DNA of 64,000 nucleotides, taken from NCBI RefSeq assembly GCF_045037415.1, contig NZ_CP173438.1. One strand, written 5' to 3'. Positions 2,661-46,211 of the stretch are shown in pieces. A model generated the notes under the pieces. That model searched no databases and was not told where the DNA came from. It worked only from the letters and a program-made list of their open reading frames with translations. The translations under genes were made by a program, and so were the position numbers. Source of the stretch: Escherichia coli. Lineage in GTDB: Bacteria > Pseudomonadota > Gammaproteobacteria > Enterobacterales > Enterobacteriaceae. Position 1 is the stretch's first letter, and each line of letters begins with the position of its first letter.

Positions 2661-2673
2661 CCATTCCTTCTTT

Positions 2674-3638: not shown

Positions 3639-3803
3639 AAGAAAACTCCTTTCGAATCAGGAGGCCATTGTAACGGAATACGTGCAGTTGCGGCGCTGAT
3701 ATTGCAGAAATGAGTGTGGTATAGTCACCTTGCGAAACAGAGTTTATCTTCGTAGGCTTAGACTTGCATCCACGGTTAAGTCAGAGTGCTGACAGGAGGG
3801 CAT

Positions 3804-4251: not shown

Positions 4252-4260
4252 TTGACTTTC

Positions 4261-4293
4261 GCCGGATGCGACGTTTGATGCGTCTTATCCGGC
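4261..4293. repeat. REP palindromic unit overlapping the 3' end of tilS
   Basis: gccggatgcgacgtttgatgcgtcttatccggc; the tilS stop codon (4285-4287) lies inside it. Confidence 0.7.
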
Positions 4294-5597
4294 TTTCACT
4301 TGACTAAGCGTTTTCTGCCAGACAAAACTGACGCCATTCTCACCTACAGCCACACCTTCTTGCGTCACAAATACCCCTGCCGCCGCAATCAGCGTTTCGC
4401 CATAAAACAGCAGTGGCGTGGTGTCACGTAGCCACGGCGGAACGCCTAACTCTTGCCAGATTTTCTTCAGCTTACGTCCACCGTTGCGCCCGACAATATG
4501 CAGCAGTCCTGGCGCTTTGAAACGCACGCTGACCGCTTCGTCTGCACGCGGAGGGCGAATATCGCCTCCCGCAGTAAGCTGTACACTTCCCAGCCCCGCC
4601 GGTAATTCCAGCGGTTGTAGCCACGTCTGCCACGGCACAATGGTTTCGCTTTGCCCGGCAACGGATTTAATCCACCACAGTTGCGACTGATAGCGGCGGA
4701 TTTCAAACGCGCCCAAACGTAAACAGGGGGAAGCATCTTCCCGCGCCAGCGCCACTTCCTGCCAGATCCGCACCAGCGCCTCGCGGGAAGGCATAGGTGC
4801 ATTCTGCCCTGCCAGCCAGCGGCGGATAATCGCCGCGCGACGGGCATCGCTCATTGCCAGCATTGGCGCAATCTTTAACGTTCCCTGTTGCGTTTGGCAG
4901 TGCGCTAAATCATCCGCCAGCAGTTCATCCAGCAGGCTCTCTTGTTCGGCGCAAAGTGCGGCGCTGCGGGCCGTCGCTTCGGCAAAATGCGGCCAACGCT
5001 GCTGCAATAACGGCACTACGCGCAGGCGCAAGAAGTTACGATCGTAGGAATCGTCTTGATTACTTTCGTCTTCAATCCAGCGTAAATCATACTGACGCGC
5101 CCACTGCTCCAGTTCCCCCGCGTGCGGGCAAGCAACGGGCGGATAAGCCGTGTTCCGGCAAACTCCGAAACTTCCGCCATAGCCGAAAGCCCGGCAGGGC
5201 CGCTACCGCGTTTTAGCGCCAGCAGAAAGGTTTCACATTGATCGTCGAGATGTTGCGCTGTAACCAGCACTTCACCGGGCAACAAGGTACGGGCAAATGC
5301 CTGATAACGTGCCTGCCGCGCCTGGGCCTCAATACCTAGCCCCTCTTGCGCAAGCTGCACACGTTCGACCACCAGCGGCACCTGCCACTGTTGGCAGATG
5401 TTTTCACAATGTTTCACCCAGGCATCAGCATTGGCGCTTAAACCGTGATGCACATGGATAGCGCGCAGAGTGACGCCCGGATTTTCCGTCCGCCACTGCA
5501 CCAGTTGATGCAGTAAGACAGTAGAATCAAGGCCGCCGCTAAAGGCCACCAGAATCTGGCGTGAGGAGAGAAGTTGTCTATTGAGCGTGAGTGTCAT
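4285..5597 (-). pseudogene. tilS: tRNA(Ile)-lysidine synthetase TilS; reading frame interrupted by an apparent -1 frameshift at a homopolymer (possible sequencing error)
   Basis: Two overlapping ORFs, 5016..5597 (PP-loop SGGLDS N-domain) and 4285..5031 (C-domain); the upstream frame goes ...LARTRG then nonsense, the other frame is open and reads [13 protein letters not shown]... from the same point; switch maps to ccccc at 5115-5119. Confidence 0.85.
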
Positions 5598-5661
5598 GAT
5601 GGTGCGATTTTACAGTAGCAATGCCCGGCACGTTACCGGGCAAATGCGGCGATGACAAGCC

Positions 5662-6051
5662 TTACTGCTCATACAGTTCCAACGGCAGCCCGTCCGGATC
5701 GTTAAAGAACGTGAAGCGTTTTTGCGTGTATGGATCGACACGGATGGCTTCACACTTCACGTTATGGCTTTCAAGGTGCGCCACTGCCGCATCGATATCA
5801 TCAACGCTAAAAGCCAGATGACGCAGGCCGCAAGCTTCCGGTCGGCTGGGGCGCTCCGGCGGGAACGGAAATGAGAAAAGCTCAATCACATATTGCCCAT
5901 TAAGCGCCAAATCCCCTTTCCACGAGTCGCGCGCTTCGCGATAGACTTCGCTTTGCAGCGTGAAACCAAGAATATCGCAGTAGAAAGCTTTGCTCATCGC
6001 ATAATCCGTCGCAATAATCGCAATATGGTGAACCTGTTTTAAACCCAGCAT
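5662..6051 (-). CDS. yaeR: glyoxalase/VOC-family protein YaeR
   Basis: ORF track 5662..6078; internal ATG at 6051 gives MLGLKQVHHIAII..., 129 aa. Confidence 0.8.
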   Translation of the reverse strand: MLGLKQVHHIAIIATDYAMSKAFYCDILGFTLQSEVYREARDSWKGDLALNGQYVIELFSFPFPPERPSRPEACGLRHLAFSVDDIDAAVAHLESHNVKCEAIRVDPYTQKRFTFFNDPDGLPLELYEQ

Positions 6052-6107
6052 AACGTCTCCTTTATTTGTTAACAGCACGTTACTCGCCCGGAAGCCGCTC
6101 TGGCAAG

Positions 6108-8249
6108 TTATCCCGCCATTTTTAGGACTCGTACGCGGTAAACGCCGTCTTCGTCCTGTTTCGCGCCGTGAATATCCGTTTCAAAACCGGGGTAATGTTG
6201 CCCTACGGAACAAAGCATCAGTAGAAAATCGAGTACCGTGCGGCTCTCTTCGGTAAGCATTTCTCCCGGCATCAGCAGCGGTACGCCGGGTGGATAAGGC
6301 AGGATCATATTTGCCGATACTCTACCGACCAGTTGTTCCAGCGCAATGGTTTCTACTTCGCCTTTAATCTGTCTCTGCCATGCCTGATGTGGCGTCATGA
6401 TCATCTCCGGCAAGGTATCAAATGCCCGCAACATCAAACCGGGAAGATCGTGTTTACGAATCAGCTTATGGATCCCTTGCGCCAGATCCTGAATACGCAT
6501 ATTGCGGTAGAAATCGGGATCTTCTGCATAGAGATCGGGCAGCATATTTTTGATCCGCAGGTTGAGATCGTAAGAGCGCTTAAATTCCGTCAACCCACGC
6601 AATAATCCCATTGCTTTGGTTTTATCGATGCCAATACTAAAGAGAAACAGCAGGTTATAAGGGCCGGTTTTCTCTACTACGATCCCACGTTCGTCGAGGA
6701 ATTTTGCCACCAGCGCCGCCGGGATCCCCTCCTCGCTCATATTGCCCTGCTCGTCCATTCCCGGTGTCAAAATAGTGACTTTAACCGGATCGAGAAACAT
6801 GTGATTGGCATCCGCATCGCTAAAGCCGTGCCACTGTTCGCCAGGCGCAACGTGCCAGCATTCGGCTTCATCCACCTGCGGCGGTTGCCAGATATCGAAA
6901 AACCAGCTGTCAGACTCTTCCCGCAGCCGCTGGACCTCTTTGCGAAAATGCAGCGCTCGTTCTACTGAACGGTTAATCAGCCGTTTGCCCGGATTACCAC
7001 GCAGCATCGCCGCCGCCGTCTCAACCGAAGCAACAATGGGATAACTGGGCGAGGTGGTGGTATGCATCATAAAGGCTTCGTTAAACGCCTCTTCGTCATA
7101 CTCGCCTTTAATGTGGATCAGCGACGCCTGGGACAACGCCGCCAGCATTTTGTGGGTCGACTGCGTTTCGAAGATCACTTTTCCCGCAACACGCTCACCG
7201 CTCATACCACTTTTACCCTGGTAGATCGGATGAAAATGGGTGTACGGCACCCAGGCAGAATCGAAGTGAATCGACGGGACATCCAGCGTCTGTTTGATCC
7301 AGTCGGTGTTGTAGAGCAAGCCATCATAGGTGGAGTTGGTGATCACCGCATGAACCGGCCATTGTGCCTGCGTGGTGGCAGCGACTTTCTCTTCGATGCT
7401 GTCGCGAGTAAATTCACCGCGCGGGATCCCACCCAGAATCCCCAACGCATTACGCGTCGGTTTCAGCCAGACTGGCACTACATCGTTCATCATCAACAGA
7501 TGCGCCAGCGATTTATGACAATTGCGGTCGATCAACAGCGTACTGCCGGATGGCGCGGCGTACATACCCACAATTTTGTTCGACGTCGATGTTCCATTAG
7601 TAACGATATAACTCTGTTCCGCGCCAAACGTCCGCGCGATGTACTCTTCCGCTTCCAGGTGTGGCCCGGTGTGGTCGAGCAACGAACCAAGCTCGGTGAC
7701 CGAAATAGAGACGTCCGCCTTGAGGGTATTCCCGCCGAAAAAATCATAAAACAGACAGCCAACCGGGCTTTTTTGATATGCGGTACCGCCCATATGCCCC
7801 GGCGTACAAAAGGTGTACTTCCGCTCTTTGACGTAGGTAAACAAGGCTTTCGTAAACGGCGGCGTAATGTTATCAAGATATTCGTTGGTGTACTGACGCA
7901 TACGAATGGCGATATCTTCCGCCTGCCCCAGCGCATATTCAAAAAACCAGAGCGCCATCCGCATATCCTGCACGCTGACATCCATCGTCGAGTGGGTGTT
8001 GATGAAGGCATAAAGCGGGAGATATTCATTAAGTTGATTGATATCGCTACATAAATCGAGACTGTACTCATCCCAGTCAAAAATCACGCCGCAAATTCGT
8101 GGGTTATGTTCGATAAACTTCAGCAAATCAACGCTGTTTTGTGGCCAGATAATCTGAAAGCCTTGCGCCACCAGCGCCGACTCCAGTTCTTTGATGGGCT
8201 CATCTTTATAAAAGACGCCATGCGGTCCCATAATGGCAATGATGTTCAT
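6108..8249 (-). CDS. ldcC: constitutive lysine decarboxylase (PLP-dependent, Orn/Lys/Arg decarboxylase family)
   Basis: 713-aa ORF; fold-type I decarboxylase sequence; location downstream of accA indicates ldcC rather than cadA. Confidence 0.93.
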   Translation of the reverse strand: MNIIAIMGPHGVFYKDEPIKELESALVAQGFQIIWPQNSVDLLKFIEHNPRICGVIFDWDEYSLDLCSDINQLNEYLPLYAFINTHSTMDVSVQDMRMALWFFEYALGQAEDIAIRMRQYTNEYLDNITPPFTKALFTYVKERKYTFCTPGHMGGTAYQKSPVGCLFYDFFGGNTLKADVSISVTELGSLLDHTGPHLEAEEYIARTFGAEQSYIVTNGTSTSNKIVGMYAAPSGSTLLIDRNCHKSLAHLLMMNDVVPVWLKPTRNALGILGGIPRGEFTRDSIEEKVAATTQAQWPVHAVITNSTYDGLLYNTDWIKQTLDVPSIHFDSAWVPYTHFHPIYQGKSGMSGERVAGKVIFETQSTHKMLAALSQASLIHIKGEYDEEAFNEAFMMHTTTSPSYPIVASVETAAAMLRGNPGKRLINRSVERALHFRKEVQRLREESDSWFFDIWQPPQVDEAECWHVAPGEQWHGFSDADANHMFLDPVKVTILTPGMDEQGNMSEEGIPAALVAKFLDERGIVVEKTGPYNLLFLFSIGIDKTKAMGLLRGLTEFKRSYDLNLRIKNMLPDLYAEDPDFYRNMRIQDLAQGIHKLIRKHDLPGLMLRAFDTLPEMIMTPHQAWQRQIKGEVETIALEQLVGRVSANMILPYPPGVPLLMPGEMLTEESRTVLDFLLMLCSVGQHYPGFETDIHGAKQDEDGVYRVRVLKMAG

Positions 8250-8303
8250 GTGTTCCTCCTGGAAAATCCTTCCTTAATCATAGCCTGCTCAAACCGTGGC
8301 GAT

Positions 8304-8331
8304 AAAAAAGGGCCACCGAAGTGACCCTTTT
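8304..8331 (-). terminator. rho-independent terminator after accA (T-runs on both sides)
   Basis: aaaaaa gggccac cgaa gtgaccc tttt; 7-bp stem with one G-U. Confidence 0.65.
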
Positions 8332-8346
8332 CAGAACATTTGCCGA

Positions 8347-9306
8347 TTACGCGTAGCCGTAGCTCATCAGGCGCTGATAACGACGATTTTTTAAATCTTC
8401 AGTGCTTAACACGTCGAGATCGGCCAGATCCGCCAGCAGCTGCGCTTTCAGAGACGCCGCCATCGCTTCCGGGTTACGGTGAGCACCGCCCAGCGGTTCC
8501 GGGATGATGGAGTCGATCAGTTTCAGCTCTTTCAGACGCGGAGCGATGATACCCATCGCTTCAGCCGCCAGCGGCGCTTTGTCAGCGCTCTTCCACAGAA
8601 TGGACGCACAACCTTCCGGCGAGATAACGGAATAGGTGCTGTATTGCAGCATATTCACTTTATCGCCCACGCCAATCGCCAGCGCACCACCAGAACCACC
8701 TTCACCGATAACCGTACAAACTACCGGTACGCCGAGGCGAGACATTTCACGCAGGTTGCGTGCAATGGCTTCCGACTGACCACGTTCTTCTGCGCCCACG
8801 CCCGGATATGCCCCCGGGGTGTCGATAAAGGTGATGATAGGCATCTTAAAACGTTCAGCCATTTGCATCAGACGCAGTGCTTTGCGGTAACCTTCTGGCG
8901 CTGGCATACCAAAGTTACGGCGAATTTTTTCTTTGGTTTCACGACCTTTTTGATGACCAATGATCATCACCGGACGACCATCGAGACGGGCGATACCACC
9001 GACGATAGCTTTATCGTCTGCATACGCGCGGTCGCCAGCCAGTTCGTCAAATTCATCAAATGCCAGGCGAACGTAATCCAGGGTATAAGGACGCTGTGGA
9101 TGGCGTGCCAGTTGCGCAATCTGCCATGCACCGAGATCGGCGAAGATTTTACGCGTCAGTTCTACGCTTTTTTCACGCAGACGATGCACTTCTTCATCGA
9201 TGTTAATATCCAGTTTCTCATCCTGACGGCTAACCGCAGTCAGAGAATCGATTTTCGCTTCCAGCTCTGCAATCGGCTGTTCAAAATCAAGGAAATTCAG
9301 ACTCAT
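8347..9306 (-). CDS. accA: acetyl-CoA carboxylase carboxyltransferase alpha subunit
   Basis: 319-aa [25 protein letters not shown]...; synteny after dnaE. Confidence 0.95.
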
Positions 9307-9318
9307 AGTATTCCTGTA

Positions 9319-12300
9319 TTAGTCAAACTCCAGTTCCACCTGCTCCGAACCAATGAGGCCACGGAGATCGTTTAATAAACGATCGCTCGGAGAGACACGC
9401 CACGTCGCGCCAAAACGCAATCGCGCGCGTGCATCCGCCCTCTGATAGTAGAGATGTACTGGAATTGTCCCAGAGCGGTGGGGTTCCAGAGACTGACGGA
9501 GTCGGTTTAAAAGCTGGTCATCAATTTGCCTGTCCGTCAGCGAGATAGCAAGCCCGCGAGCATATTTTTCCCGGGCTTCGTCAATATCCATCACTTCGCG
9601 AGCAGTCATTTTAAGCCCACCGCTGAAGTCATCAAAGCTGACCTGTCCGCTGACGATAAGTATGCGGTCTTTTTCCAGCAATTGCTGGTATTTATCCAGG
9701 GCGTCAGTAAACAACATCACTTCCAGCCGCCCGGAACGGTCATCCAGCGTGCAGATACCGATACGATTGCCGCGCTTGGTGACCATAACCCGCGCGGCAA
9801 CAACGAGCCCCGCAGCCGTGATGACTTTACCACGTTCTGTCGGGTGCATGTCTTTCAGCCTTACGCCTCCGACATAACGCTCAATCTCTTTTAAATACTG
9901 GTTGATAGGGTGTCCCGTGAGGTACAGACCTAACGTTTCACGTTCCCCATCTAACACCACCTGCTCCGGCCACGGTTGGCAGCTGGCGTAGGATTGTTCA
10001 ATTTGTTCCGGCTCTTCGGCCAGCACGCCGAACATATCGGCCTGACCGATAGCTTCCGCTTTCGCGTGTTGATCTGCCGCTTTTAACGCATCGCCCAGCG
10101 AGTTCATCAGCGCCGCGCGGTGTGGCCCAAGACGGTCAAACGCCCCGGACATGATCAGTTTTTCCAGCACCCGCCGGTTTAACTTTTTGGTGTCGGTACG
10201 GGCGCAGAGATCAAACAGTTCGCGGAAGTAGCCGCCTTTATTACGGGCTTCGATGATGGCCTCAATCGGGCCTTCACCTACCCCTTTGATCGCGCCAATA
10301 CCATACACGATTTCGCCGTCGTCGTTGACGTGGAAATGGTAAAGACCGGAGTTTATATCTGGTGGCAGGATTTTCAGCCCCATCCGCCAGCACTCATCCA
10401 CCAGGCCCACCACCTTCTCGGTGTTGTCCATATCGGCGGTCATTACCGCCGCCATAAACTCTGCCGGATAATGTGCCTTCAGCCATAACGTTTGATATGA
10501 CACCAAAGCATAGGCCGCCGAGTGCGATTTGTTAAATCCGTAACCCGCGAATTTCTCCACCAGGTCGAAGATTTTCATCGCCAGTTCGGCGTTGATTCCG
10601 TTCTTTTCTGCACCTTCAGCAAATACAGAACGCTGCTTAGCCATCTCTTCCGGCTTTTTCTTACCCATCGCACGACGCAGCATATCCGCGCCACCGAGGG
10701 TATAACCAGAAAGCACCTGGGCAATCTGCATGACCTGTTCCTGATACAGGATGATGCCGTAGGTTGGCTCCAGTACCGGTTTCAGGCTTTCATGCTGCCA
10801 CTGCACGTCCGGATAGGAGATCTCTTCGCGACCATGTTTACGGTCGATAAAGTTATCCACCATCCCTGATTGCAACGGGCCGGGGCGGAACAGTGCCACC
10901 AGTGCGATCATATCTTCGAAGCAGTCAGGTTGCAGACGCTTGATCAGGTCTTTCATGCCGCGCGATTCAAGCTGGAATACCGCCGTGGTTTCCGAGCGTT
11001 GCAGCATGTCGAAGCTTTTCTTGTCATCCAGCGGGATCGCGGCGATATCCAGCGGGGGCTCGCCATTCTTCGCCCGCCGCTTGTTGATCATCTCCAGCGC
11101 CCAGTTGATGATGGTGAGCGTACGCAAACCGAGGAAGTCGAACTTCACCAGCCCGGCGTATTCAACGTCGCTTTTATCAAACTGGGTGACCGGATGTTTG
11201 CCCTCTTCATCGCAATAAAGCGGCGCAAAATCAGTAATTTTGGTCGGCGCGATAACCACCCCACCGGCGTGCTTACCGGCGTTACGGGTGACCCCTTCCA
11301 GTTTGCGCGCCATGTCGATCAGCGCCTTAACTTCTTCATCCGCTTCGTAGATTTCCGGCAGCTGCGGCTCGGCTTCAAACGCTTTCGCCAGCGTCATACC
11401 CGGATCGGGCGGGATCAGTTTCGAGATACGATCGACAAATCCGTACGGATGCCCCAATACACGGCCTACGTCGCGGATCACCGCTTTCGCCGCCATCGTA
11501 CCGAAGGTGATAATCTGCGATACCGCATCGCGACCGTACATGTCCGCCACATGTTCGATAACCTGGTCACGTTTCTCCATACAGAAGTCAACGTCGAAGT
11601 CAGGCATGGAGACACGTTCCGGGTTAAGGAAACGTTCGAACAGCAGGTCAAATTCCAGCGGATCGAGATCGGTGATTTTTAACGCGTAGGCCACCAGTGA
11701 CCCTGCACCAGAACCACGGCCTGGCCCTACCGGTACACCGTTATCTTTCGACCACTGGATAAATTCCATAACGATGAGGAAGTAACCCGGGAAGCCCATC
11801 TGGTTGATAACCTGAAGTTCAGTATCCAGACGTTCGTCATACTCCGGACGACGCTTAAGACGTTCTTCCTCGTCAGGGAATAAAAATGCCAGACGCTCTT
11901 CCAGGCCTTCTTTTGCACGCTTGACCAGATAATCTTCGGTACTCATGTCCCCGGTCGGGAATTGCGGCAAGAAGTATTCACCCAGACGCACAGTTACGTT
12001 ACAACGTTTGGCTATCTCAACGGTGTTGGCAAGGGCTTCGGGAATGTCGGCAAAAAGCTCGCACATCTCCTCTTCGCTACGCATATATTGCTGCGGCGAA
12101 TAGTTACGCGGGCGTTTAGGATCGTCGAGGGTAAAGCCGTCGTGGATCGCGACGCGGATTTCGTGTGCGTCAAAGTCGCTGCTGTCGATAAAGCGCACGT
12201 CGTTGGTCGCCACAACGGGCAAACCGCGTGATTCCGCCAGTTCCACCGCAGCGTGCAGATAGCTTTCTTCGTCCGGCCTGCCGGTGCGGATCAGCTCGAG

Positions 12301-12801
12301 AAAATAGCGATCCGGGAAGTGTTCTTCATAAAACGCGACACACTCATCTACCAGCGCGCTGTTACCACGCAAAAGACTGCGTCCAACGTCGCCCATGCGC
12401 CCGCCGGAAAGAAGGATCAACCCTTCGTTTAATTCGATAAGCCAGTCGCGATCGATGATCGGCCCGGCGGCACCGTACCCGCGCTGATACGCTTTTGAGA
12501 TCAGCAACGTCAGATTCTGATAGCCGGTATTGTTCGCCGCCAGCACCGTCAGGTGAGTTAACTCATCACCCAGCAGGTCGCACTGGACGTTAAAATCCGC
12601 CCCGACGATGGGCTTAATCCCTGCGCCATGTCCCGCTCCGTAGAACTTCACCAGACCGCAAAGGTTGGTGAAATCGGTGATCGCCAGTGCTGGCATACCC
12701 AACGCTGCCGCCTTTTTTACCAGCGGTGCGGTTTTGGCCAGGCCATCGATCATCGAGTAGTCACTGTGCACCCGCAGGTGTACGAAACGTGGTTCAGACA
12801 T
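9319..12801 (-). CDS. dnaE: DNA polymerase III alpha subunit
   Basis: 1160-aa ORF with PHP domain N-terminus ([20 protein letters not shown]...). Confidence 0.97.
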
Positions 12802-12837
12802 CTTCAGATTCCGGTTTACTTAATCTCGACACAAGAA

Positions 12838-13434
12838 TCAGGACGCAAGTCCCAGTGCGCGTTTGACAGGCCCAAAGCTGCGCCGATGGTGTTCGGTCGC
12901 GCCGTGTTCAGCCAGTTTTTCCAGATGAAAAGCGGTTGGATACCCTTTGTGTTGGGCAAAACCATATTGCGGGAAAACAATATCCAGCGCCGCCATTTCG
13001 GCGTCACGCGTCACTTTCGCCAGGATAGACGCGGCACTGATTTCCGGTACGCGGCTATCGCCTTTCACCACAGCCATCGAAGGCATCGGTAATTTCGGGC
13101 AGCGGTTACCATCAATCAACACATATTCCGGCGCAATATGCAGTCCAGCGACGGCACGCTGCATCGCCAGCATGGTCGCATGTAAAATATTCAGTTCGTC
13201 GATTTCGTGAGGTTCCGCGCGGCCCAGACTCCAGCTCAACGCTTTCTCTTTGATCTCTTCACAGAGCGCCAGACGGCGTTTTTCGCTCAGCTTTTTGGAA
13301 TCATTCAGCCCGGCAATCGGGCGCGCCGGGTCAAGGATCACCGCAGCGGTGACGACCGCGCCAACTAACGGCCCGCGTCCGACTTCATCCACACCCGCAA
13401 CCAGCTGCGTGTGCGGATAGACAAATTCGATCAT
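12838..13434 (-). CDS. rnhB: ribonuclease HII
   Basis: 198-aa [14 protein letters not shown] motif; overlaps lpxB by 4 nt. Confidence 0.93.
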
Positions 13435-14579
13435 TGTGCTAACTCCAGAACGGCTTGTGCCGCCTGCTCATCGGCATTGCAGCGGATCTGCTGATGCAGC
13501 TCGCGGAAGGTGTCGTGCATCGCATGGCTGGTTTTCCCGTTCGCCAACAGCGGTAACAGCGCCGCAGCCAATTTTTGCGGCTCACACTCTTCCTGCAATA
13601 ACTCTTTGACTAACTCTCTGCCCGCCAGCAGATTTGGCAGCGAGACATAATCAGTTTTCACCAGTCGCTTCGCCAGCCAGAAGGTGAAAGGCTTCATGCG
13701 ATATCCCACTACCATCGGGCATTTAGCCAGCATACACTCCAGTGCTGCCGTACCCGACGCCAGTAGCGCCGCATCACTGGCGACCATCGCCTCACGGCCC
13801 ATTCCATCCAGCAAATGAACCGACAGGTCTGGCGCGACTGCAGCTTTGATGCGTTCAAACTGCTCACGGCGTTTGGCATTCACCAGCGGCACCACGATTT
13901 CGAGATCCGGATATGTCTGGCGCAAAAGCTGGGCCGTTTTCAGGAAATCGGCACTAAGCATTTCGACTTCTGCACCACGGCTGCCCGGCAACAATGCCAG
14001 ACAGTGGGCATCGTAAGGGATCCCCAGCACATCACGGGCACCATTTTTATCTGGATCTAATGGCATGGCATCAGCCATGGTATGACCGATAAAGCGGCAC
14101 GGTACGTTGTATTTGTCATAAAACGCTTTTTCGAAAGGCAGAAATGCGAGCACCAGATCGGTGGCTATGCCTATTTTGAAAACGCGTTTCTGTCGCCACG
14201 CCCAGACGGACGGACTGACGTAATGAATGGTTTTGATACCCTGCTTTTTGAGGTTACCTTCAAGAGTAATATTGAAGTCAGGCGCATCAATACCAACAAA
14301 AACATCTGGCTTCAGTTCGCCAAAACGCTTTGTCAGATCGGCACGAATATGTAGTAAGCGACGCAGACGACCGAGCACTTCAACAATGCCCATCACTGCC
14401 AGTTCTTCCATTTCGTACCAGGCTTCGCAGCCTTCAGCCTGCATTCGTGGCCCGGCAACACCAACAAAGCGGGCGTTGGGCACACGTTCTTTCAGAGCGC
14501 GGATTAAACCGGCCCCCAGGATATCGCCGGAGGTTTCTCCGGCGACCAGGGCAATCGTTAATGGACGCTGTTCAGTCAT
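13431..14579 (-). CDS. lpxB: lipid-A-disaccharide synthase
   Basis: 382-aa ORF; lpxA-lpxB-rnhB coupling. Confidence 0.93.
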
Positions 14580-15367
14580 TAACGAATCAGACCGCGCGTT
14601 GAGCGTGCAAAGAAATCGGTAAAGGCTTTCACTTCCGGATATGTTTCCGCCAGTTCAGCAATTTCCGGTTTCACTTCATCGAGCGTCTTACCGCTACGAT
14701 AAATCAGCTTATACGCATTGCGGATAGCGGTAATCGCCTCACGGCTGAATCCGCGGCGCTTCAGCCCTTCGATATTGACACCGAACGGCGTTGCGTGGTT
14801 ACCCTGCGCAATGACATAAGGAGGGACGTCCTGCGCCACACCGGAGCAGCCGCCAACCATCACATGCGCACCAATGATGCAGAACTGATGGACTGCGGTC
14901 ATGCCGCCGATGATCGCGAAGTCGTCAACCGATACGTGACCCGCCAGCGTTGCGTTGTTGGCGAGGATGCAGCGGTTACCTACCGTACAATCGTGCGCAA
15001 TGTGCGCGTTGATCATCAGTAAGTTGTCGCTGCCCACCTTCGTCAATCCACCGCCCTGGACTGTGCCACGATGAATGGTGACGCTTTCGCGAATGCGGTT
15101 ACGATCGCCGATTTCCACGCGGGTCGGTTCGCCAGCATATTTCAGATCCTGGTTAACTTCGCCGATGGAGGCGAACTGATAAATCTCATTATCGCGGCCA
15201 ATTTTAGTATGACCATTCACGACAACGTGAGATTTCAGTACGGTACCCTCACCAATTTCGACATGGGGTCCAACGATACAAAAAGGACCAATGTGAGCGT
15301 TCGCGCCAATCGACGCGCCCTCTTCCACAATGGCGGTTGGATGCACAAAGGCGGATTTATCAATCAC
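14579..15367 (-). CDS. lpxA: UDP-N-acetylglucosamine acyltransferase
   Basis: 262-aa ORF with hexapeptide repeats; 1-nt overlap with lpxB. Confidence 0.95.
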
Positions 15368-15370
15368 GTA

Positions 15371-15826
15371 TCAGGCCTCCCGGCTACGAGCACACATCAT
15401 CGTTGCTTCGCAAACTACTTTACCGTCGACCAGAGCAACCCCTTTAAAACGGGTCAGGCCGCGGCGCGTTTTTTCGAAAGTGACTTCCATGATCATTTGA
15501 TCGCCAGGCACGACCGGGCGCTTAAAGCGCGCTTCGTCAATACCGGCGAAGTAGTACAGCTCACCCGGTTCCAGTTTTCCTACGCTTTTAAACGCCAGAA
15601 TACCTGTTGCCTGTGCCATTGCTTCCAGAATCAGCACACCCGGGAAAATCGGTTTTCCAGGGAAATGGCCCTGGAAGAATGGCTCATTGACAGAGACATT
15701 TTTTACTGCGCGCAGAAAACGACCTTCTTCAAAATCCAGCACGCGATCCACCAGTAAGAACGGGAAACGGTGCGGCAGAAGTTCTAAAATCTCTTCAATC
15801 TGCAGAGTATGAGTGTTAGTAGTCAA
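15371..15826 (-). CDS. fabZ: 3-hydroxyacyl-ACP dehydratase FabZ
   Basis: ORF track 15371..15919; TTG at 15826 preceded by aggaag SD gives (M)[27 protein letters not shown]..., 151 aa. Confidence 0.9.
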
Positions 15827-15930
15827 GATACTCTTCCTGTCAAAATATAAGAAACGACAATAATAACACGGCCTGCCGCAATCGTAAGAATGAGACAGGC
15901 CGTAAAGTTTGGCGAACAAAAGATGGAACG

Positions 15931-16956
15931 TTAGTCTTGTTGATTAACCTTGCGCTCAAGCGATTTCAGACGCTTGCTCATGTCATCAATGTTCATCACC
16001 AGTGCAGCGGTTTTGCGCCAGACTTTGTTGGGTTGCAGCGGAATGCCTGAGGAATAGACGCCTGGTTCAGTGATGGGACGCATCACCATACCCATGCCCG
16101 TAACCGTCACTTTGTCGCATATTTCCATATGCCCGTTGATTACGCTGGCTCCGCCGATCATGCAGTAACGACCAATTTTCAGGCTGCCCGCCATAATGAC
16201 GCCACCGGCAACTGCCGTATTGTCGCCAATCACGACGTTATGTGCAATCTGGCACTGGTTATCAATGATCACACCATTGCCAATAACAGTGTCATCCAGC
16301 GCGCCACGATCAATAGTAGTGCAGGCACCGATCTCCACGCGATCGCCAATAATTACCCGACCAATCTGTGGGATCTTCACCCAGTTACCACGATCGTTGG
16401 CATAACCAAAGCCGTCTGCGCCTACCACTGTTCCGGACTGGATCAGGCAATTCTGACCGATCTGGATCTCATGGTAAATGGTTACGTTCGCCCAGAGACG
16501 CGAACCTGCACCGATTTTGCTGTTTTTACCTACGAAGCAACCGGCACCGATAATCACGTTATCGCCCAGTTCAACGCCGGACTCAATCACCGCGTTAGCG
16601 CCAATCGATACGTTGTTACCCAGCTTCGCCGTCGCGTCAATCACCGCACTGGGTGCAATGTTCTGCGCGGGCTGCGGCGTGGTATCTAAAATTTGCGCCA
16701 TGCGCGCGTAAGTCAGGTAGGGATTCTTCACTACCAGCGCGGCACTTTTCGCGAAAGGAAGATCGTCCTGGGTCATGACAACCGCGGACGCCTGGCACAA
16801 GCCTAAATGCTCACGGTATTTTGGGTTAACCATGAACGTAATGTGACCTGTTTGTGCAGATTGCATGGACGCAACGCCGGTGATGACGATATCGCCATCA
16901 CCGTGTAGTTCTGCATCCAACTGCTGCGCTAAATCAGCCAGTCGAATTGAAGGCAT
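15931..16956 (-). CDS. lpxD: UDP-3-O-(3-hydroxymyristoyl)glucosamine N-acyltransferase
   Basis: 341-aa ORF with hexapeptide-repeat left-handed beta-helix sequence. Confidence 0.95.
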
Positions 16957-16959
16957 TAC

Positions 16960-17445
16960 TTATTTAACCTGTTTCAGTACGTCGGCAGTGATGTCTTTTA
17001 CATCGCTGCTGTTGTAAGCAACGGCGTTTGCATCAACAACCAGATCGATATCCTGGCTGTTGGCAACGGATTTCACAGCAGTCTGGATACGAGTAACCAG
17101 TTTGCCGCGTTCTTCGTTGGAACGACGTGCGCGATCCTGCTCAAAAGCCTGCGCTTTCTGAGCAAAAGTCTGGCGCTGAGCCATCACGTCTTTTTCCAGC
17201 TTAGTGCGATCGCTGCCCGCTTTCATGGACTGCAGCTTTTTCATTTTAGCCTGCAGATCGGTTTCCATACGCTGCAGTTCGCTGGCACGGCCTTTGAACT
17301 CGTTTTCCAGCGTGTTAGAAACACCGGTTTTCTGCGCTACCTGCTGGAACAGGCTGCCCATATTGACGATTGCAATTTTGTCAGCCGCCTGAGCAGAAGT
17401 TGCCAGTGCTAAACCAGAACCTGCAGCTAATAACCACTTTTTCAC
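16960..17445 (-). CDS. skp: periplasmic chaperone Skp
   Basis: 161-aa ORF with signal peptide and coiled-coil-rich sequence. Confidence 0.93.
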
Positions 17446-17566
17446 AATAAACTCCTTACCATCCCATTTGCACCGGAGGGTGCAGTTCTTTGCGTGGCCC
17501 GGCGATCTTATATTGATCGCCTAAAGTCATCGCTACACTACCACTACATTCCTTTGTGGAGAACAC

Positions 17567-20017
<2,451 letters not shown>

Positions 20018-20028
20018 CTAACTAACTC

Positions 20029-21381
20029 TCATAACCGAGAGAAATCATTGAAAAGTGCAAGCCCCATTAACAGCACCAGCAGAATCGAGCCAATGCGATA
20101 ACAAAAGTCTTGAACCCGCTCGGATACCGGTCCGCCCTTGATCTTTTCGATCGCAAGGAACAGCAGATGCCCCCCGTCAAGTACGGGCAACGGAAACAGG
20201 TTAATTATCCCTAAGTTCACGCTAATAAGCGCAAGAAACGGCAGGTAATAAACTACCCCGAGTTCCGCTGTCATCCCAGCCCCCTTGGCGATAGAGATCG
20301 GCCCACTGAGGTTGTTCAGTTTCACATCACCGGTGATCAATTTTCCCAGCATACTGACCGTCAGCTTCATCAACTGCCACGTTTTGTCCGTGGCTTCGAC
20401 GATAGCGTTGAACGGCCCATACTGGCGTACAACTTTATACTCATCAGGCAAAGGAATGACTTTCGGCTCAATACCGACAAAACCAATCGCTTTACCATTA
20501 CCCGGTTTACTCTCCGGGATTAATGTCAAAGACAAGGGACTCCCCTGTCTTTCGATTTCTAACGCTAAGGATTTACCCGGGTTATCCCGGACAAGCATCA
20601 CAAAGGTCACCCACTGCGTTAAGGGCTGACCATCGACTTTAACGATCCTGTCGCCTGCTTGCAAACCTGCCTTGCTTGCCGCCGAGTTTGGCTGCACATT
20701 TTCCAGTACAGGTTCAATTTGCGGCCCACGAGGACGAATCCCCAACGAAGATACCGGATCTTCTTTATCAGGCTCAAACGCCCAGTGACGTAAATCGAGC
20801 TTTACATCCCGCCGTTGGTCGCTGCCAAATGGCGCTACCGTAATGGTGGTGCTTTCATCGCCAATTTTATCGACCAACTGCAAACGCACGGCATCCCAAT
20901 CAGGCGTTTCGATACCATCTACGGCTTTTAGTTCCGTACCTGGTGCAATTTGTGCTTCCGCAGCTATCGAATTGGCTGCTATTTCACCAACCACCGGACG
21001 TACGCCAGGCACACCAATAATAAAAACCAGCCAGTAGGCAAAGATAGCAAAAATGAAGTTTGCAACTGGACCTGCGGCAATAATCGCCGCTCGTTGGCCG
21101 ACAGATTTATTATTGAAGGCATGGTGGCGGAGTTCCGGAACGACCGGTTCTGCGCGCTCATCCAGCATTTTGACATAACCGCCCAACGGGATCAGGGCGA
21201 TAACATATTCGGTGCCGAGCTTATCAGTTCGCCGCCAGAGCGCCTTACCAAACCCTATTGAGAAACGCTCAACGCGAACACCACAACGCCGGGCAACCCA
21301 GAAATGACCAAATTCATGCACGGTGATAAGTACACCCAGTGCAACGATGAACGAAGCCAAATCCCAGAGAAAACTCAGCAT
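20029..21381 (-). CDS. rseP: regulator of sigma-E protease RseP (site-2 protease)
   Basis: ORF track 20029..21426; ATG at 21381 gives [11 protein letters not shown]..., 450 aa, HEFGH zinc motif. Confidence 0.9.
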
Positions 21382-21392
21382 ATTACCTTCCG

Positions 21393-22250
21393 TTAAAGCG
21401 TCCTGAATACCAGTAACAACAAGCAAGCAAAGACCGGTACCGCAGCCGTCAGGCTATCAATACGATCTAAAATACCACCGTGTCCTGGAATTAAATGACC
21501 GCTGTCCTTAATTCCCGCTTCACGCTTAAACATACTTTCGGTCAGATCGCCGAGCACTGAGGCTAACGCTGCGACAATAGAGCAAATGAGTAAGGTGACG
21601 GGAGCGACGTCGAGATTCACCCACATGCCATAACCCCATGAGATTACCGCTGCGGTCACGAGTCCACCGATAAAGCCTTGCCAGGTTTTACCCGGAGAAA
21701 CCTTCGGTGCCAGTTTATGTTTACCAAACAATTTGCCAAACATATATGCGCCAGAGTCAGCGCCCCATACCAGGATCATGACATAGAGCAGCCATATTGC
21801 GCCACTGTAATGATTCTCGTCGTAGTGCCAGGCCCGTAACGCCAGCATGCCCCAGAAGAAGGGAACAATGGTTAGCACGCCAAAAATAATGCGCAATGTT
21901 TTAGAGTTACGCCAGATTGCTGCGGAACCTGGGTAAAACAGCACCAGCAATAGCGCGACAATCCACCAACCCAGCGAAGCCCAAAGTGAGATTTCAACCA
22001 GCGGTTGATGAATATTTCGGTGATATTCCGGCAACAGAAAAAGCATCAGCGCCAACAATAACCCGCATAACACCGCCAACCATACTCGCTGCGAACGAGT
22101 GGTAAAACCGCTAAGCTGTCCCCATTCCCACGCTGCCAGCATACAGACCACCAGCGTTACAATGGCGAACCCCACCGGCGGCAACAGAAACAACGCCGCG
22201 ATGACGACGGGTATTAACACAAAAGCAGATATCAGGCGATACTTCAGCAA
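21393..22250 (-). CDS. cdsA: CDP-diglyceride synthetase
   Basis: 285-aa polytopic membrane ORF. Confidence 0.93.
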
Positions 22251-22262
22251 AAGCGACCCCCA

Positions 22263-23024
22263 TCAGGCTGTTTCATCACCGGGCTCGGTGCCGCCGAAAC
22301 GACGCTCTCGATTAGCAAAGGCATTTAACGCCCCTTCAAAGTCTTGTTCATCGAAATCGGGCCAGAGAACATCTGTAAAGTAAAGTTCGGCATAGGCAAT
22401 TTGCCAAAGCAAAAAGTTACTAATGCGATGCTCCCCCCCAGTCCTAATTACTAAATCTACAGGGGCCAGTTCATGCATACAGACATGCTGGTTTAGCATC
22501 TCTTCATCTATCTGATCTGGTTGCAGGTTTCCTTGCTGCACCTTTTCAGCCAGTTGCCTGACTCCCTGGACTATATCCCAACGTCCACCGTAGTTCGCCG
22601 CAATATTCAGCGTCAGACCGGTATTCCCGGCTGTTAGCGCTTCAGATTTACGAATACGTTCTTGCAAACGCGAGTTAAAGCGACTGGTATCGCCAATAAT
22701 ACGCAGACGCACGTTATGTCGGTGCAGACTTTTTACTTCGCTATCTAGCGCCCACACAAACAGTTCCATTAACGCACTGACTTCCTGCGCTGGTCGGTTC
22801 CAGTTTTCACTACTAAAGGCATACAGCGTTAACGCCTCAATACCGTTGTTGGCCGCAAAAGAGACAGCCCGGCGGACGGATTTTGCCCCGGCTTTATGCC
22901 CAAAGGCACGAATCTTCCCTTGCTTTTTTGCCCAGCGACCATTGCCGTCCATAATGATCGCAACATGACGACAGCCATGCGCTGGCAATTTTTCGCTAAG
23001 TGGTTGAGTAGCAGACAACATCAC
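22263..23024 (-). CDS. uppS: undecaprenyl pyrophosphate synthase
   Basis: 253-aa ORF; GTG start then ATG; HVAIIMDGNGRWA motif. Confidence 0.93.
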   Translation of the reverse strand: MMLSATQPLSEKLPAHGCRHVAIIMDGNGRWAKKQGKIRAFGHKAGAKSVRRAVSFAANNGIEALTLYAFSSENWNRPAQEVSALMELFVWALDSEVKSLHRHNVRLRIIGDTSRFNSRLQERIRKSEALTAGNTGLTLNIAANYGGRWDIVQGVRQLAEKVQQGNLQPDQIDEEMLNQHVCMHELAPVDLVIRTGGEHRISNFLLWQIAYAELYFTDVLWPDFDEQDFEGALNAFANRERRFGGTEPGDETA

Positions 23025-23079
23025 GCGTTTCTTATTCCCTGACAGGGTTTACGGTACTCAGGAATACTGAAGCCTATAC

Positions 23080-23105
23080 AAAAAAAAGCCGTGTAAAACC
23101 ACGGC
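23080..23105 (-). terminator. rho-independent terminator after dxr
   Basis: gccgtg taaaac cacggc hairpin at 23088-23105, followed on the minus strand by an 8-nt U-run (plus-strand A8 at 23080-23087). Confidence 0.7.
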
Positions 23106-23209
23106 ATACCTGACCTTATAAAGCCAACTACTTACGATCAGATGGCGCAGACTATATCACTGAAGCCCTACGCTAACAAATAGCGCGACTCTCTGTAGCC
23201 GGATTATCC

Positions 23210-24406
23210 TCAGCTTGCGAGACGCATCACCTCTTTTCTGGCGACTTCACGCGCGTTCGCATCAACAGATAACACATCATCCACACATTGTGGTTCGCGC
23301 ATATCCATTTTTTCCAGTACGGATAAATTCAACGCAGCGATATCCGTAAAGCGGATTTGTTGCGCAAGAAAAGCAGCCACGGTGATTTCATTTGCGGCAT
23401 TCAATGCTGTCGTCGCTGCCTGGCCTTGTTCAAACGCCTCCATCGCCAGTTTCAGACATGGATAACGATCATAATCCGGTGCGGCAAATGTCAACGCACT
23501 TAGTTTGCAAAAATCAAGCGGCTTCACGCCAGAGTTCACGCGATTCGGCCATGCCATGGTGTGAGCAATTGGCGTACGCATATCCGGTTCACCCAGCTGC
23601 GCCAGAACACTGCCGTCCTGGTAGCGCACCATTGAGTGAATCACTGACTGCGGGTGAATCAGCACTTCCATCTGGCTGGCGCTGGCGTTAAACAGCCAAC
23701 GCGCTTCAATGTATTCCAGACCTTTGTTCATCATGGTAGCCGAATCGACGGAAATTTTACGTCCCATCGACCAGTTCGGATGACGGCAGGCTTGATCGGG
23801 CGTCATTGTTGCCAAATCGCGCAATGGCGTCTCACGGAAAGGGCCACCAGACCCGGTAAGTAAAATGGACACCACGCCATTTTGCTCAAGGTCAGCGTAT
23901 CCCAGATTATGCTGGATAGGTTGCGGTAAACTCTGAAAAATGGCGTTATGTTCGCTATCGACCGGTAACAATTGCGCTTTGCTCTGCTTTACGGCGTCCA
24001 TAAACAGACGTCCGCAGGTAACCAGTGATTCTTTATTGGCCAGCAAAATGGTTTTACCCGCGCGGATCGCAGCAAGCGTAGGTAACAGTCCAGCAGCGCC
24101 AACAATGGCTGCCATCACCTGATCAACATCCTTAAGCGCTGCCATATCGCAAGCGGCTTGTTGCCCACTTAAGACTTCGGTGCGGCTCCCCTGTTGCTGT
24201 AGCATCGTTTTAAGAAGTTTCGCACTCGCTTCATCGTCCATTACGGCATAGCGGGGAGAGAATTCCAGGCACTGTTCTACCATGCGAGTGACATTTTTGC
24301 CGGCCACCAGCGCAACTACGCGGAAATGTTCGGGATTATGGCGCACCACGTCCAGCGTGCTGCAACCAATCGAGCCGGTCGAGCCCAGAATGGTGAGTTG
24401 CTTCAT
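23210..24406 (-). CDS. dxr: 1-deoxy-D-xylulose 5-phosphate reductoisomerase
   Basis: 398-aa [17 protein letters not shown]... Confidence 0.95.
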
Positions 24407-24497
24407 GAAACATCCAGAGTTGAGACAGAATAAAAAGCAAAACGCCGCCAGCCGATCCGCAAGGATCTACTGAGCGGCGTTTTTGTCGTTCAAGAAA

Positions 24498-25055
24498 TCA
24501 GAACTGCATCAGTTCTGCTTCTTTGTCTGCCAGCGCCGCTTCAATTTTCTTGATTGCAGCATCAGTCAGTTTCTGTACATCGTCCTGAGAACGGCGATCG
24601 TCGTCTTCGCTGATCTCTTTATCTTTCAACAGTGCTTTCACTTTGTCGTTCGCGTCACGACGCACGTTACGTACTGCAACACGCGCTTGTTCTGCTTCAC
24701 CACGAACGATTTTGGTCAGATCTTTACGACGTTCTTCCGTCAGCGGCGGCAGCGGAACACGGATGTCGCTACCCGCAGAGTTCGGGTTCAGGCCAAGATC
24801 GGACGCCATAATCGCTTTTTCAACGGCCGGAGACATTGAACGATCAAACACGTTGATTTTCAGAGTACGGGAATCTTCTACCGTTACGCTTGCCAGCTGA
24901 CGCAGCGGCGTCGGCGTGCCGTAATATTCCACGACAATGCCATCCAGCAGGCTGGGAGAAGCACGACCCGTGCGTATTTTGCTGATTTGGGTTTTGAACG
25001 CTTCTACGCATTTATCCATGCGTACTTCAGCATCTTTTCTGATATCGCTAATCAC
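24498..25055 (-). CDS. frr: ribosome recycling factor
   Basis: 185-aa ORF. Confidence 0.95.
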
Positions 25056-25204
25056 GTTACGAATCCTTGAAAACTTGTCTCAGTCAGACCAGACAGTCAC
25101 ACACAGTGGAAGTGTGCTAAGTATAGCCCTGATTAAACATATTACGGGTAAGATCCCCCGCGATACTTACGCGGAATCTTACCCTTATTTATCCATCACG
25201 GGAA

Positions 25205-43307: not shown

Positions 43308-43314
43308 TGATTTT

Positions 43315-43335
43315 GCCTCGCCCACCGGGCGAGGC
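43315..43335. terminator. bidirectional terminator hairpin between convergent hemL and fhuB
   Basis: gcctcgccc acc gggcgaggc, 9-bp perfect stem, flanked by ttttg. Confidence 0.65.
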
Positions 43336-43341
43336 ATCCTA

Positions 43342-45324
43342 TTAACGGCTCTGCTTTCTCAACAAATAGATAAAATATGGCGCGCCGATAAAGGTCGACA
43401 GCAGCCCCGCTGGGATCTGGAATGGAAACAATACCATCCGCCCACACCAGTCAGCGAACACCAGCAGTAATCCTCCCACCAGCGCCGAAATTACGATGTG
43501 TGGCATCGTCCGTCGAAAGCCCATCATCCGCGCAATATGCGGTGCCATTAAACCAACAAAACTCAACGGACCAATGGTCATTGTCGCGGTCGCCGTCAGG
43601 CAAGCCGCTAACAGCAGCAGCGCAATTCGCGTCGGCGTCAGCGCCATCCCCACGGCTCGTGCGGTATCACCACCCAGCGGTAAAATGGTCAGCCAGCGGC
43701 GGCACAGCGGGGTAATCGCCAGCAAAATCACCATCACAATTCCAGTACGCCAGACCTGCGCATCGGTCGCGTTGTAGGTCGAACCGGAAATCCAGGTCAG
43801 AACTTGCGCCATTCGCGGGTCACCACTTGCCTGCAACATCATCAAAAGCATGGTGAACGCGGTACTTAACGCCATCCCCGCCAGTAACATGCGGTGTGGG
43901 GAAAATCCACCGCGTCCGGCGGCGATCATAATGATCAACAGCGTCACCGCCGCCCCGAGACTGCCTGTGGGTAACAGCCAGCCAAAGGCATTACCCGGCA
44001 CCAGAAACAGCATTAACACCACGCCAAACGCCGCGCCGGAGCTAATCCCCAGCACTTCCGGGCTTGCCATCGGGTTTCCGGTCAGCCGCTGAATAATACA
44101 GCCCGCCACCGCCAGCATGACACCCGCAAACAGCGCCGCCATAATTCGCGGCCAGCGCCAGGGCATCAAATCCTCGAGCAACGCCCCGCTCGCCCACGTC
44201 CAGCCGTGCGCATCACGACCAAACGACAGCGCCACCACCACAGCCATCAACAGCAGCACGCCGCCCGCGAGAGCAAACGCCAGCACGTGTTGGCGTTCAG
44301 TCGCGACACGATCGTTGACCTTCATATCCGGCGCGCTAATGCTGCGTAAACGCGGCAGCAGCCACAGTAGCAGCGGCGCACCGATCAACGCAGTGACCGA
44401 ACCGGTAGACACTTCCATCCACACGCGAGTCAGCCAGAGGATGATTTGATCAGAAAGCCACAGAATTAACGCACCAATCAGCGATGCCAGCATCAACCGT
44501 GGCAACAAACGCCGCGCCCCCAGCATTTTCGCCAGCAGTGGCGCGAACAAACCGATAAAGCCGATAATCCCCACCGCGTTCACCAGCAGCGCACTGATGA
44601 CAATCGCCAGCGACAACGCCGCCAGACGAGCGAGCGACAAGGCCAGCCCGAGATTGCGCGCCACGCCATCATCAAGCCCCATCAGAGTTAACGGGCGAAG
44701 TAGCAATAACGTCAGCATCACGCCGCCCAGCAGCTGCGGCCATAAACGCTCAACGCCGCCCCAGTCGGTTTGCGTCAGCGTTCCGGTGCTCCACAGGAAC
44801 ATGCTTTGCAGTTGGTCATGATGGAAGATAACCAGTAACTGATTGATTGCGCCGCAATAAAGGCTCACTACCAGCCCCGCGAGGATCAGCGTTACCGGCG
44901 AAAGCCGTTTCCCCCACGCGACGCCAAAGACGATTAAGCCAACAACACAAGCCCCTGCCAGCGCAGCAAACTGGCTCGCCATCGCGCCGGGGATCGCCCA
45001 GAGCGTGGTGACGGTAATCCCCAGTTGCGCGCCTGTTGCAACACCCAACGTCGTCGGTTCCGCCAGCGGGTTACGCAGCACTTGCTGAAACAGCACGCCC
45101 ACCATCCCCAGGCCCGCGCCCACCAGCAGCGAAATCGCCAGACGCGGCAACAAGCTGTAGTGAAAAATCATCTGCTCGATGACGTCAATATCCGGCGACC
45201 AGGCGGCCTGCGCCCACTGGCTGCGCGGCAGCGCCTGCGAGAAGTTCATCCAGGTCAACGCCGCAGCAGCAACCACCAGCAGCGCCAGCAATAACACCGG
45301 AAAAAGCGCAATTCGTTTACTCAC
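43342..45324 (-). CDS. fhuB: ferric hydroxamate ABC transporter permease
   Basis: 660-aa duplicated FecCD-type permease. Confidence 0.93.
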   Translation of the reverse strand: MSKRIALFPVLLLALLVVAAAALTWMNFSQALPRSQWAQAAWSPDIDVIEQMIFHYSLLPRLAISLLVGAGLGMVGVLFQQVLRNPLAEPTTLGVATGAQLGITVTTLWAIPGAMASQFAALAGACVVGLIVFGVAWGKRLSPVTLILAGLVVSLYCGAINQLLVIFHHDQLQSMFLWSTGTLTQTDWGGVERLWPQLLGGVMLTLLLLRPLTLMGLDDGVARNLGLALSLARLAALSLAIVISALLVNAVGIIGFIGLFAPLLAKMLGARRLLPRLMLASLIGALILWLSDQIILWLTRVWMEVSTGSVTALIGAPLLLWLLPRLRSISAPDMKVNDRVATERQHVLAFALAGGVLLLMAVVVALSFGRDAHGWTWASGALLEDLMPWRWPRIMAALFAGVMLAVAGCIIQRLTGNPMASPEVLGISSGAAFGVVLMLFLVPGNAFGWLLPTGSLGAAVTLLIIMIAAGRGGFSPHRMLLAGMALSTAFTMLLMMLQASGDPRMAQVLTWISGSTYNATDAQVWRTGIVMVILLAITPLCRRWLTILPLGGDTARAVGMALTPTRIALLLLAACLTATATMTIGPLSFVGLMAPHIARMMGFRRTMPHIVISALVGGLLLVFADWCGRMVLFPFQIPAGLLSTFIGAPYFIYLLRKQSR

Positions 45325-46211
45325 GCTTTACCTCCGATGGCGTTATCCAGAATACGCACAAAGTGCATTGCAGAAAGCGTCGCACCATAGAACCAAACTG
45401 CAGGTACGCGCTGAAAGCGTCCGGCGCGGACAAACGGCATGGCCTGCCACAGCGGGGTTGCCATTAGCGCATCCATGTCTTTGCTGTTGTCGTGATCAAA
45501 ACAGAGCACATCAACGTCTTTATACGCTGCCAGACGATCGATACTGACGGCGGTACTGCCCCAGAAGTTGGTTTCCCCTTGCCAGGCATTTGGGATGCCG
45601 TACTCATCGAGAATTTCCTGGAACAAGCTGTTTGGACCGAAGACCAACATATGGCGCGGATCGATAAGCGTCGTCAGCAATAACGGGCGTGCACCACGCT
45701 TCACAAAGCGGGGTTTCATGCTGCGGATAAAGTCTTCATAGTGCGCTAAATGCGTTTCCGCTGCGCTTTGCAGGTTAAGTAAATCTGCCATTTCCGTCAG
45801 TGATTTACGCGCCATCGCCAGTGGCTGTTTGCCGTCGCTGAAGTTAAATCCGCGCCCCGGCGCAATACGTGCCAGCATTTCTGGTGAAGGGCCATATCCT
45901 GCAGACCAGACCATAAACGACGGTTTCATTTCGGTCAGCAGTTCAAGGTTGGGTTCTGTACGCAAACCAACGTCAATCACTGAGTCCGGCAATGGCGGTT
46001 CGCTGACCCACAGGCGATAGTTGATGGTGTCCGCCACGCCGTAAGGCACGATGCCGAGCGCCAGCAGTAACTCCACCGGCAACCACTCCAGTGCCACAAT
46101 ACGATTGGGATCAATAACCGCCGCGTGGGCGGTATTCATCTGCCATAACAACGGAGAAAGCGCCATCGCCGTTAACAGTCGGCGGCGCGAAATAAGAGGT
46201 AAGCCGCTCAT
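45321..46211 (-). CDS. fhuD: ferric hydroxamate periplasmic binding protein
   Basis: ORF track 45321..46214 begins at TTG; ATG at 46211 gives MSGLPLISRRRLLTAMALSPLLW..., 296 aa, Tat-like RRR signal. Confidence 0.9.
   Translation of the reverse strand: MSGLPLISRRRLLTAMALSPLLWQMNTAHAAVIDPNRIVALEWLPVELLLALGIVPYGVADTINYRLWVSEPPLPDSVIDVGLRTEPNLELLTEMKPSFMVWSAGYGPSPEMLARIAPGRGFNFSDGKQPLAMARKSLTEMADLLNLQSAAETHLAHYEDFIRSMKPRFVKRGARPLLLTTLIDPRHMLVFGPNSLFQEILDEYGIPNAWQGETNFWGSTAVSIDRLAAYKDVDVLCFDHDNSKDMDALMATPLWQAMPFVRAGRFQRVPAVWFYGATLSAMHFVRILDNAIGGKA

Follow-up and report, generated by a model that had tools for sequence, protein, structure and literature searches.

Introduction

RSA repeats are palindromic sequences of about 150 bp (152 bp), with six copies in the genome of Escherichia coli K-12, as reported in the K-12 genome paper. 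The family is said to have been described by Bachellier and Hofnung in 1996 and to have been published also as the BEE95 family, and Bachellier, Clement and Hofnung reportedly surveyed repeats of this type in 1999. The variable occupancy of such repeats among E. coli strains is well known. RSA/BEE95 repeats are cited as an enterobacterial family in PMC3751351, and the PU/BIME repeats of E. coli amount to several hundred copies (PMC2267715).

We analysed a stretch of 64,000 nucleotides from E. coli (contig NZ_CP173438.1 of assembly GCF_045037415.1), hereafter referred to as the window. In this stretch, frr (24498..25055, minus strand) and pyrH (25205..25930, minus strand) are separated by a spacer considered shorter than that of K-12 in an initial annotation, which suggested that a discrete small element is present in one lineage and absent from another. 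We report here that the K-12 spacer harbours a member of a dispersed repeat family of low copy number, and that the window very likely carries an unoccupied site of ancestral type, a MITE-like repeat of about 141 bp having been inserted in the sub-lineage that contains K-12.

The pyrH-frr spacer in the window and in K-12

The complete pyrH-frr intergenic spacer of the window, a short unoccupied allele, has a length of 149 bp (25056..25204, minus strand; ORF coordinates and sequence), as stated in the initial annotation. The length of about 291 bp that the annotation gave for K-12 was also accurate: in MG1655 (NC_000913.3), pyrH ends at position 192580 and frr starts at position 192872, leaving exactly 291 bp rather than 149 bp, and the spacer of a second MG1655 assembly is likewise 291 bp long. 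The difference is therefore exactly 142 bp, and pairwise alignment placed all of it at a single point. At this point, BLAST and the pairwise alignment revealed one indel, in which 145 bp of K-12 (25610..25754 of K-12 locus L141) replace the GAT at 25152..25154 of the window (minus strand; ATC on the gene strand). The gene-strand sequence of the window is ...CGCGGGGG-ATC-TTACCCG..., and that of K-12 is ...CGCGGGGG-(CGTAAGTCTGG...CCAGACGA, 145 bp)-TTACCCG....

The surrounding region is colinear with K-12, with only four single-base gaps in 1928..25151 and none in 25155..27046, in agreement with the earlier statement that the other spacers of the lpxD-to-tsf stretch match those of K-12. Colinearity ends past tsf, where the rpsB-tsf spacer differs by 123 bp. 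The additional 145 bp of K-12 correspond to a copy of a dispersed hairpin repeat, described below, and the presence or absence of this repeat accounts for the length difference between the window strain and the K-12 reference. The discrete small element postulated from the window was thus found, and it is present or absent according to lineage.

A low-copy family of dispersed palindromic repeats

The repeat to which the K-12 insert belongs has a non-coding unit of about 141 bp and occupies a median of five places per E. coli genome (range 1–8), with six in each of MG1655, C600, J53 and ER1709, four in O157:H7 and two in S88-type genomes. None of the family copies carries an annotation. We identified the loci of four of the six K-12 copies: pyrH-frr (filled in about 65% of genomes), pheM-pheS, in which the copy lies between the attenuator and pheS (filled in all the genomes fetched), cysP-ucpA (filled in 1,388 genomes, 26%) and rlmKL-ycbX (filled in 4,188 genomes, 77%). 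All four copies are intergenic, with lengths of 141 to 146 bp, and share a near-invariant core of about 125 nt with GTAC-N4/5-GTAC at its centre. The copies are predicted to fold end to end as one long imperfect hairpin (−57.8 and −53.6 kcal/mol, z of about −5). The terminal 10 bp or so vary by locus yet pair within each copy, and eight base pairs are maintained through two-sided changes between loci. We considered whether the variable termini derived from hairpins already present at the targets and rejected this possibility, as the empty cysP-ucpA, rlmKL-ycbX and pyrH-frr sites lack the sequences concerned.

With an nhmmer profile of the family, no copy of the repeat was found in the window and no match was obtained in the outgroup loci. 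A metagenome scan with the conserved core recovered only three E. coli loci that were already known, and no other species. An Rfam scan of the K-12 spacer returned a single match, sX9, which scored 22 bits where the gathering score is 44; because this sole match is below the threshold and chance-like, the element does not correspond to any described Rfam family. The RNase III site near pheM was also considered as a candidate for the repeat hairpin and discarded, since the paper concerned locates that site within the attenuator of pheM, outside the repeat, and leaves pyrH and frr unmentioned. These analyses provide further detail on a neglected low-copy family, including its unit length, a 5-bp CTAAG duplication (see below) and its occupancy at four loci.

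Mobility and insertion junctions

Filled and empty alleles were found at orthologous sites for three loci, pyrH-frr, cysP-ucpA and rlmKL-ycbX. At rlmKL-ycbX, the site is empty in the ST131 strain JJ1886, with the sequence ACTCTAAG|AAAATTG. When filled, its sequence is ACTCTAAG-(141 bp)-CTAAG-AAAATTG, such that the additional 146 bp consist of the 141-bp unit and a perfect 5-bp target-site duplication, CTAAG. At cysP-ucpA, the insertion likewise adds 146 bp, the flanking repeat (ATAAG/TCAAG) is degenerate, and the pheM-pheS copy is flanked by AAAAG and CTAAG. Given the filled and empty loci and the perfect target-site duplication, we conclude that the repeat is, or was, mobile.

The pyrH-frr copy does not follow this scheme, as it adds 142 bp instead of 146 bp, and three target bases (ATC) are gone. 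Alignment and BLAST revealed no direct repeat at its flanks, which are instead inverted (GTAA...TTAC). The target arm nevertheless contains CTTAC, the complement of GTAAG and thus similar to the CTAAG target. A model of simple 5-bp duplication does not fit this junction unless an additional rearrangement is invoked, and the junction must have been remodelled.

A third allele was observed at cysP-ucpA in E. coli W (L128), with a 13-bp stub, AACCGGGTTTAAA, exactly at the position of the K-12 element. The stub is similar to the outermost bases of the element, and may be the remnant of a deletion of the palindrome.

Distribution of the two alleles in E. coli

A 701-bp query spanning the spacer was searched against 5,426 complete E. 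coli genomes and matched 5,424 of them, either as one colinear piece or as two pieces over 843 bp. The short allele was counted with a 50-mer centred on the uninterrupted junction of the window. This junction was present in 1,904 of the 5,426 genomes (35%), with at least 99% identity to the query in 1,891 cases, and its carriers include O157:H7, O55:H7, ST131, ATCC 25922, NC101 and APEC O1. The 145-bp segment was found with at least 95% identity in about 3,500 records, consistent with a filled pyrH-frr site in about 65% of the genomes. The long form is therefore not specific to K-12, the dimorphism is genuine and neither form is an artefact. The presence or absence of the element could serve as a simple marker dividing E. 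coli into groups of about 65% and 35%.

The hairpin downstream of pyrH

The point of insertion corresponds, in the window, to a position within an intact hairpin, GGGTAAGATTCCGCG-TAAGTAT-CGCGGGGGATCTTACCC on the gene strand (25146..25184, minus strand), beginning 20 nt past the pyrH stop codon and with a predicted folding energy of −25.5 kcal/mol (z −5.5). The K-12 element splits the 3' arm of this hairpin. In the short allele, the ATC trinucleotide pairs with the GAT of the 5' arm and completes a perfect 9-bp outer stem. The outer stem, GGGTAAG/CTTACCC, was found in nine Enterobacteriaceae spacers from several genera, with an exchange between GC and AU at its base. Covariation in this outer stem gives a modest signal, and sequence conservation is seen in the 5' arm as well.

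This last feature concerns the block GGTAAGATTCCGC, which forms the 5' arm (25171..25183, minus strand; spacer comparison and alignment). As the block is invariant across several genera, it is constrained as sequence in addition to its pairing, and 25171..25183 may constitute a second conserved signal besides the hairpin. The counterpart of GGTAAGATTCCGC in Erwinia and Pantoea is GGTATATTCTG. The block also resembles a −10 box (TAAGAT/TATATT).

The hairpin of the window may act as a weak pyrH terminator, as an attenuator or as an RNA-stabilising stem. With respect to terminator features, the stem is strong and the U-richness of the tail, GUAAUAUGUUUAAU, is only moderate. A simple scan of the window spacer gave one weak, lenient terminator-like call, which overlaps the 3' part of the hairpin; the K-12 spacer received no such call.

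Ancestral state and probable insertion of the element

The spacer of the window is very likely 142 bp shorter than that of K-12 because its lineage never received the element. The short allele retains CTTACCC together with ATC, whereas ATC is lacking from the long allele. Excision of the element would consequently not turn the long allele back into the short one, which indicates that the form found in the window was never occupied. Furthermore, among the matches listed, a sample without E. albertii, E. fergusonii and Salmonella, most of the Enterobacteriaceae outgroup spacers are about 130–165 bp long, and the uninterrupted GGGTAAG...CTTACCC hairpin is present in Superficieibacter, Pseudocitrobacter and others. 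The occurrence of the intact hairpin in other enterobacterial genera implies that the site in the window is of ancestral type. We propose that a palindromic mobile repeat would have inserted into the 3' arm of the conserved hairpin downstream of pyrH, that this would have taken place in an E. coli sub-lineage including K-12, the direction of the change being deduced from the above comparisons, and that the insertion would have had a single origin. In flank-only distances, the flanks of the long alleles form one tight cluster, with no more than 11 differences in 2,854 sites, and the short alleles lie on two separate flank haplotype groups, one of which adjoins the long cluster.

The insertion may nevertheless have a longer history. 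One strain, L007 (NZ_JAATUR010000035.1, titled E. coli SCPM-O-B-8794), differs by at least 2.4% over 5.5 kb from all 5,424 complete genomes and carries the long allele of the K-12 type, with identical junctions and two substitutions in the 145-bp element (98.6% identical). The insertion would thus be older than E. coli proper, or would have been moved by recombination. The O145 strain RM9872 has the long allele, as against the short allele in O157:H7 and O55:H7, which are related lineages, and the division of the 5,426 genomes into about 65% and 35% is also compatible with a polymorphism that predates the diversification of E. coli or that was redistributed by recombination. The tight clustering of the long-allele flanks also fits simple vertical descent in one clade. 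We regard such an old or recombined polymorphism as possible, without favouring it; the site in the window would still be one that was never occupied, and the wording 'one lineage' would oversimplify the distribution of the element.

The long allele of the diverged L007 would also be expected if the element were ancestral in Escherichia and had been lost, by deletion or excision, from the window and the other short-allele lineages. Long palindromes are prone to deletion, and the 13-bp cysP-ucpA stub of E. coli W is possibly a deletion remnant. However, loss would not readily explain why the short allele has the ATC that is absent from the long allele and that completes the 9-bp stem, nor why outgroup genera display the same uninterrupted hairpin with CTTACCC. 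It is equally at odds with the distribution of short alleles over two flank groups and of long alleles in one tight cluster, and the near-uniformity of the short junctions (at least 99% identity in all but 13 of the 1,904) would be unexpected under repeated independent deletions. We therefore consider loss of an ancestral element to be very unlikely. An artefact, whether misassembly of the window or a change peculiar to laboratory K-12, can be practically dismissed, since each form, down to the same junction bases, is repeatedly encountered among thousands of independent complete genomes as well as on metagenome contigs.

Signals for frr expression

Insertion into a site of ancestral type, the reading preferred here, would leave the signals closest to frr in place. 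The hexamer TATACT (25120..25125, minus strand) belongs to the block GGCTATACTTAGC, conserved in all the Enterobacteriaceae spacers examined, and is likely to be the −10 box of a promoter specific to frr; it was not called by a simple sigma-70 scan of the window spacer. The frr Shine-Dalgarno sequence AAGGA (25064..25068, minus strand), within the conserved TTTTCAAGGATTCGTAAC, is also conserved in the Enterobacteriaceae spacers examined, and lies ahead of the GTG start codon (25055..25053, minus strand). The K-12 insertion point is located about 26–29 bp upstream of TATACT, so the core promoter is untouched and the sequence further upstream is replaced.

In K-12, a transcript containing frr only and a promoter for frr have been reported (PMC6131387), and pyrH-frr, tsf-pyrH-frr and related transcripts extend across the spacer (PMC6131387). 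The existence of these read-through transcripts implies that the element is transcribed and that it does not block read-through. It is conceivable, but in our opinion doubtful, that the element is a core-conserved MITE targeting CTAAG-like sites and that the splitting of the hairpin, together with the A+T-rich end of the element (...AAATAAAATAGCCTAATAATCC...) immediately upstream of the putative frr promoter, shifts the balance between read-through from pyrH and transcription from the promoter of frr itself. If this were true, an essential translation factor would be regulated differently in the two main groups of E. coli alleles. An influence of the element on the expression of pyrH or frr, differing from lineage to lineage, would be its one biologically relevant consequence.

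Other small repeats and differences in the region

Several other intergenic differences between the window and K-12 were observed. The rpsB-tsf spacer (26929..27062) is 134 bp long in the window versus 257 bp in K-12; at 27047..27056 the window has 10 bp, GTACGAGCGT, and K-12 has a 133-bp palindrome of the ERIC/IRU type (...CCCGGTCACTTACTGATGTAAGCTCCCGGG...), 2 kb from the pyrH-frr site, which we take to be an ERIC by eye, from its characteristic core motif. Between dapD and yaeH, 124 bp of the window (32575..32698) stand in place of an 842-bp K-12 segment with the yaeI phosphodiesterase gene, and, as this segment is missing from the window, yaeI is absent from the window strain. The REP/BIME array between yaeF and nlpE (1799..1927) is rearranged, with 129 bp versus 173 bp in K-12. 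Between hemL and fhuB (43309..43340), 32 bp containing a small hairpin, GCCTCGCCC-ACC-GGGCGAGGC, occupy the position of a 155-bp BIME in K-12, and the 50 bp between yaeH and cdaR (33237..33286) are unrelated to the 85 bp present in K-12, each sequence having its own hairpin-like palindrome. The segment from fhuB towards fhuA (43341..48160) has 93.4% identity to K-12 with 24 gap openings, versus about 98% identity in the rest of the window.

Inserts were also observed in the pyrH-frr spacers of other genera. Those of Enterobacteriaceae bacterium RIT691 (L010; 274 bp) and Kluyvera genomosp. 1 (L021; 275 bp) contain ERIC-like inserts at positions unlike that of the E. coli element, and the 260-bp spacer of Brenneria roseae (L030) carries another insert. 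Small repeats have thus entered the pyrH-frr spacer several times, in different genera.

Comparison with known repeat families

The repeat families proposed for the K-12 insert in the initial annotation included ERIC, REP and RSA. ERIC and REP/BIME were ruled out by sequence. The REP/BIME repeats share with the element their intergenic location, palindromic nature and variability among strains, but the unit of the element is much longer and its copy number far lower, and BLAST gave no match to REP (PU) sequences in the K-12 BIME segments of yaeF-nlpE and hemL-fhuB. The element also resembles the ERIC/IRU repeats, which are imperfect palindromes of about 130 bp that are transcribed within operons and have a conserved centre and a strain-variable occurrence. 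The element has a lower copy number than ERIC/IRU, and BLAST gave no match linking its pyrH-frr copy to the ERIC-type segment of K-12 rpsB-tsf.

The element resembles a MITE in its small size, its lack of coding capacity, its terminal inverted repeats, the occurrence of filled and empty alleles at three loci and the perfect 5-bp duplication at rlmKL-ycbX. It differs in that its termini are the least conserved part and its core the most conserved part, the reverse of what would be expected if a transposase recognised the ends; the termini pair within each copy and differ between loci, rather than forming inverted repeats conserved across copies. The pyrH-frr copy, moreover, lacks a clean duplication.

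No RSA sequence was found in Rfam or in the literature searched, in which the family was attested by citation only. The element is nevertheless probably an RSA repeat, given the size of that family, its palindromic form, its intergenic location and its six K-12 copies: the element is likewise palindromic, intergenic, low-copy and non-coding, with six places in K-12, and its 141-bp unit, together with the 5-bp duplication, falls slightly short of the 152 bp of RSA. RSA was thus the family named in the initial annotation that fits in size, palindromic structure and K-12 copy number. As judged from sequence comparisons, the element behaves in a MITE-like manner and is ERIC-like in its architecture, and its variable presence between pyrH and frr is an ordinary strain-to-strain polymorphism of a known kind.
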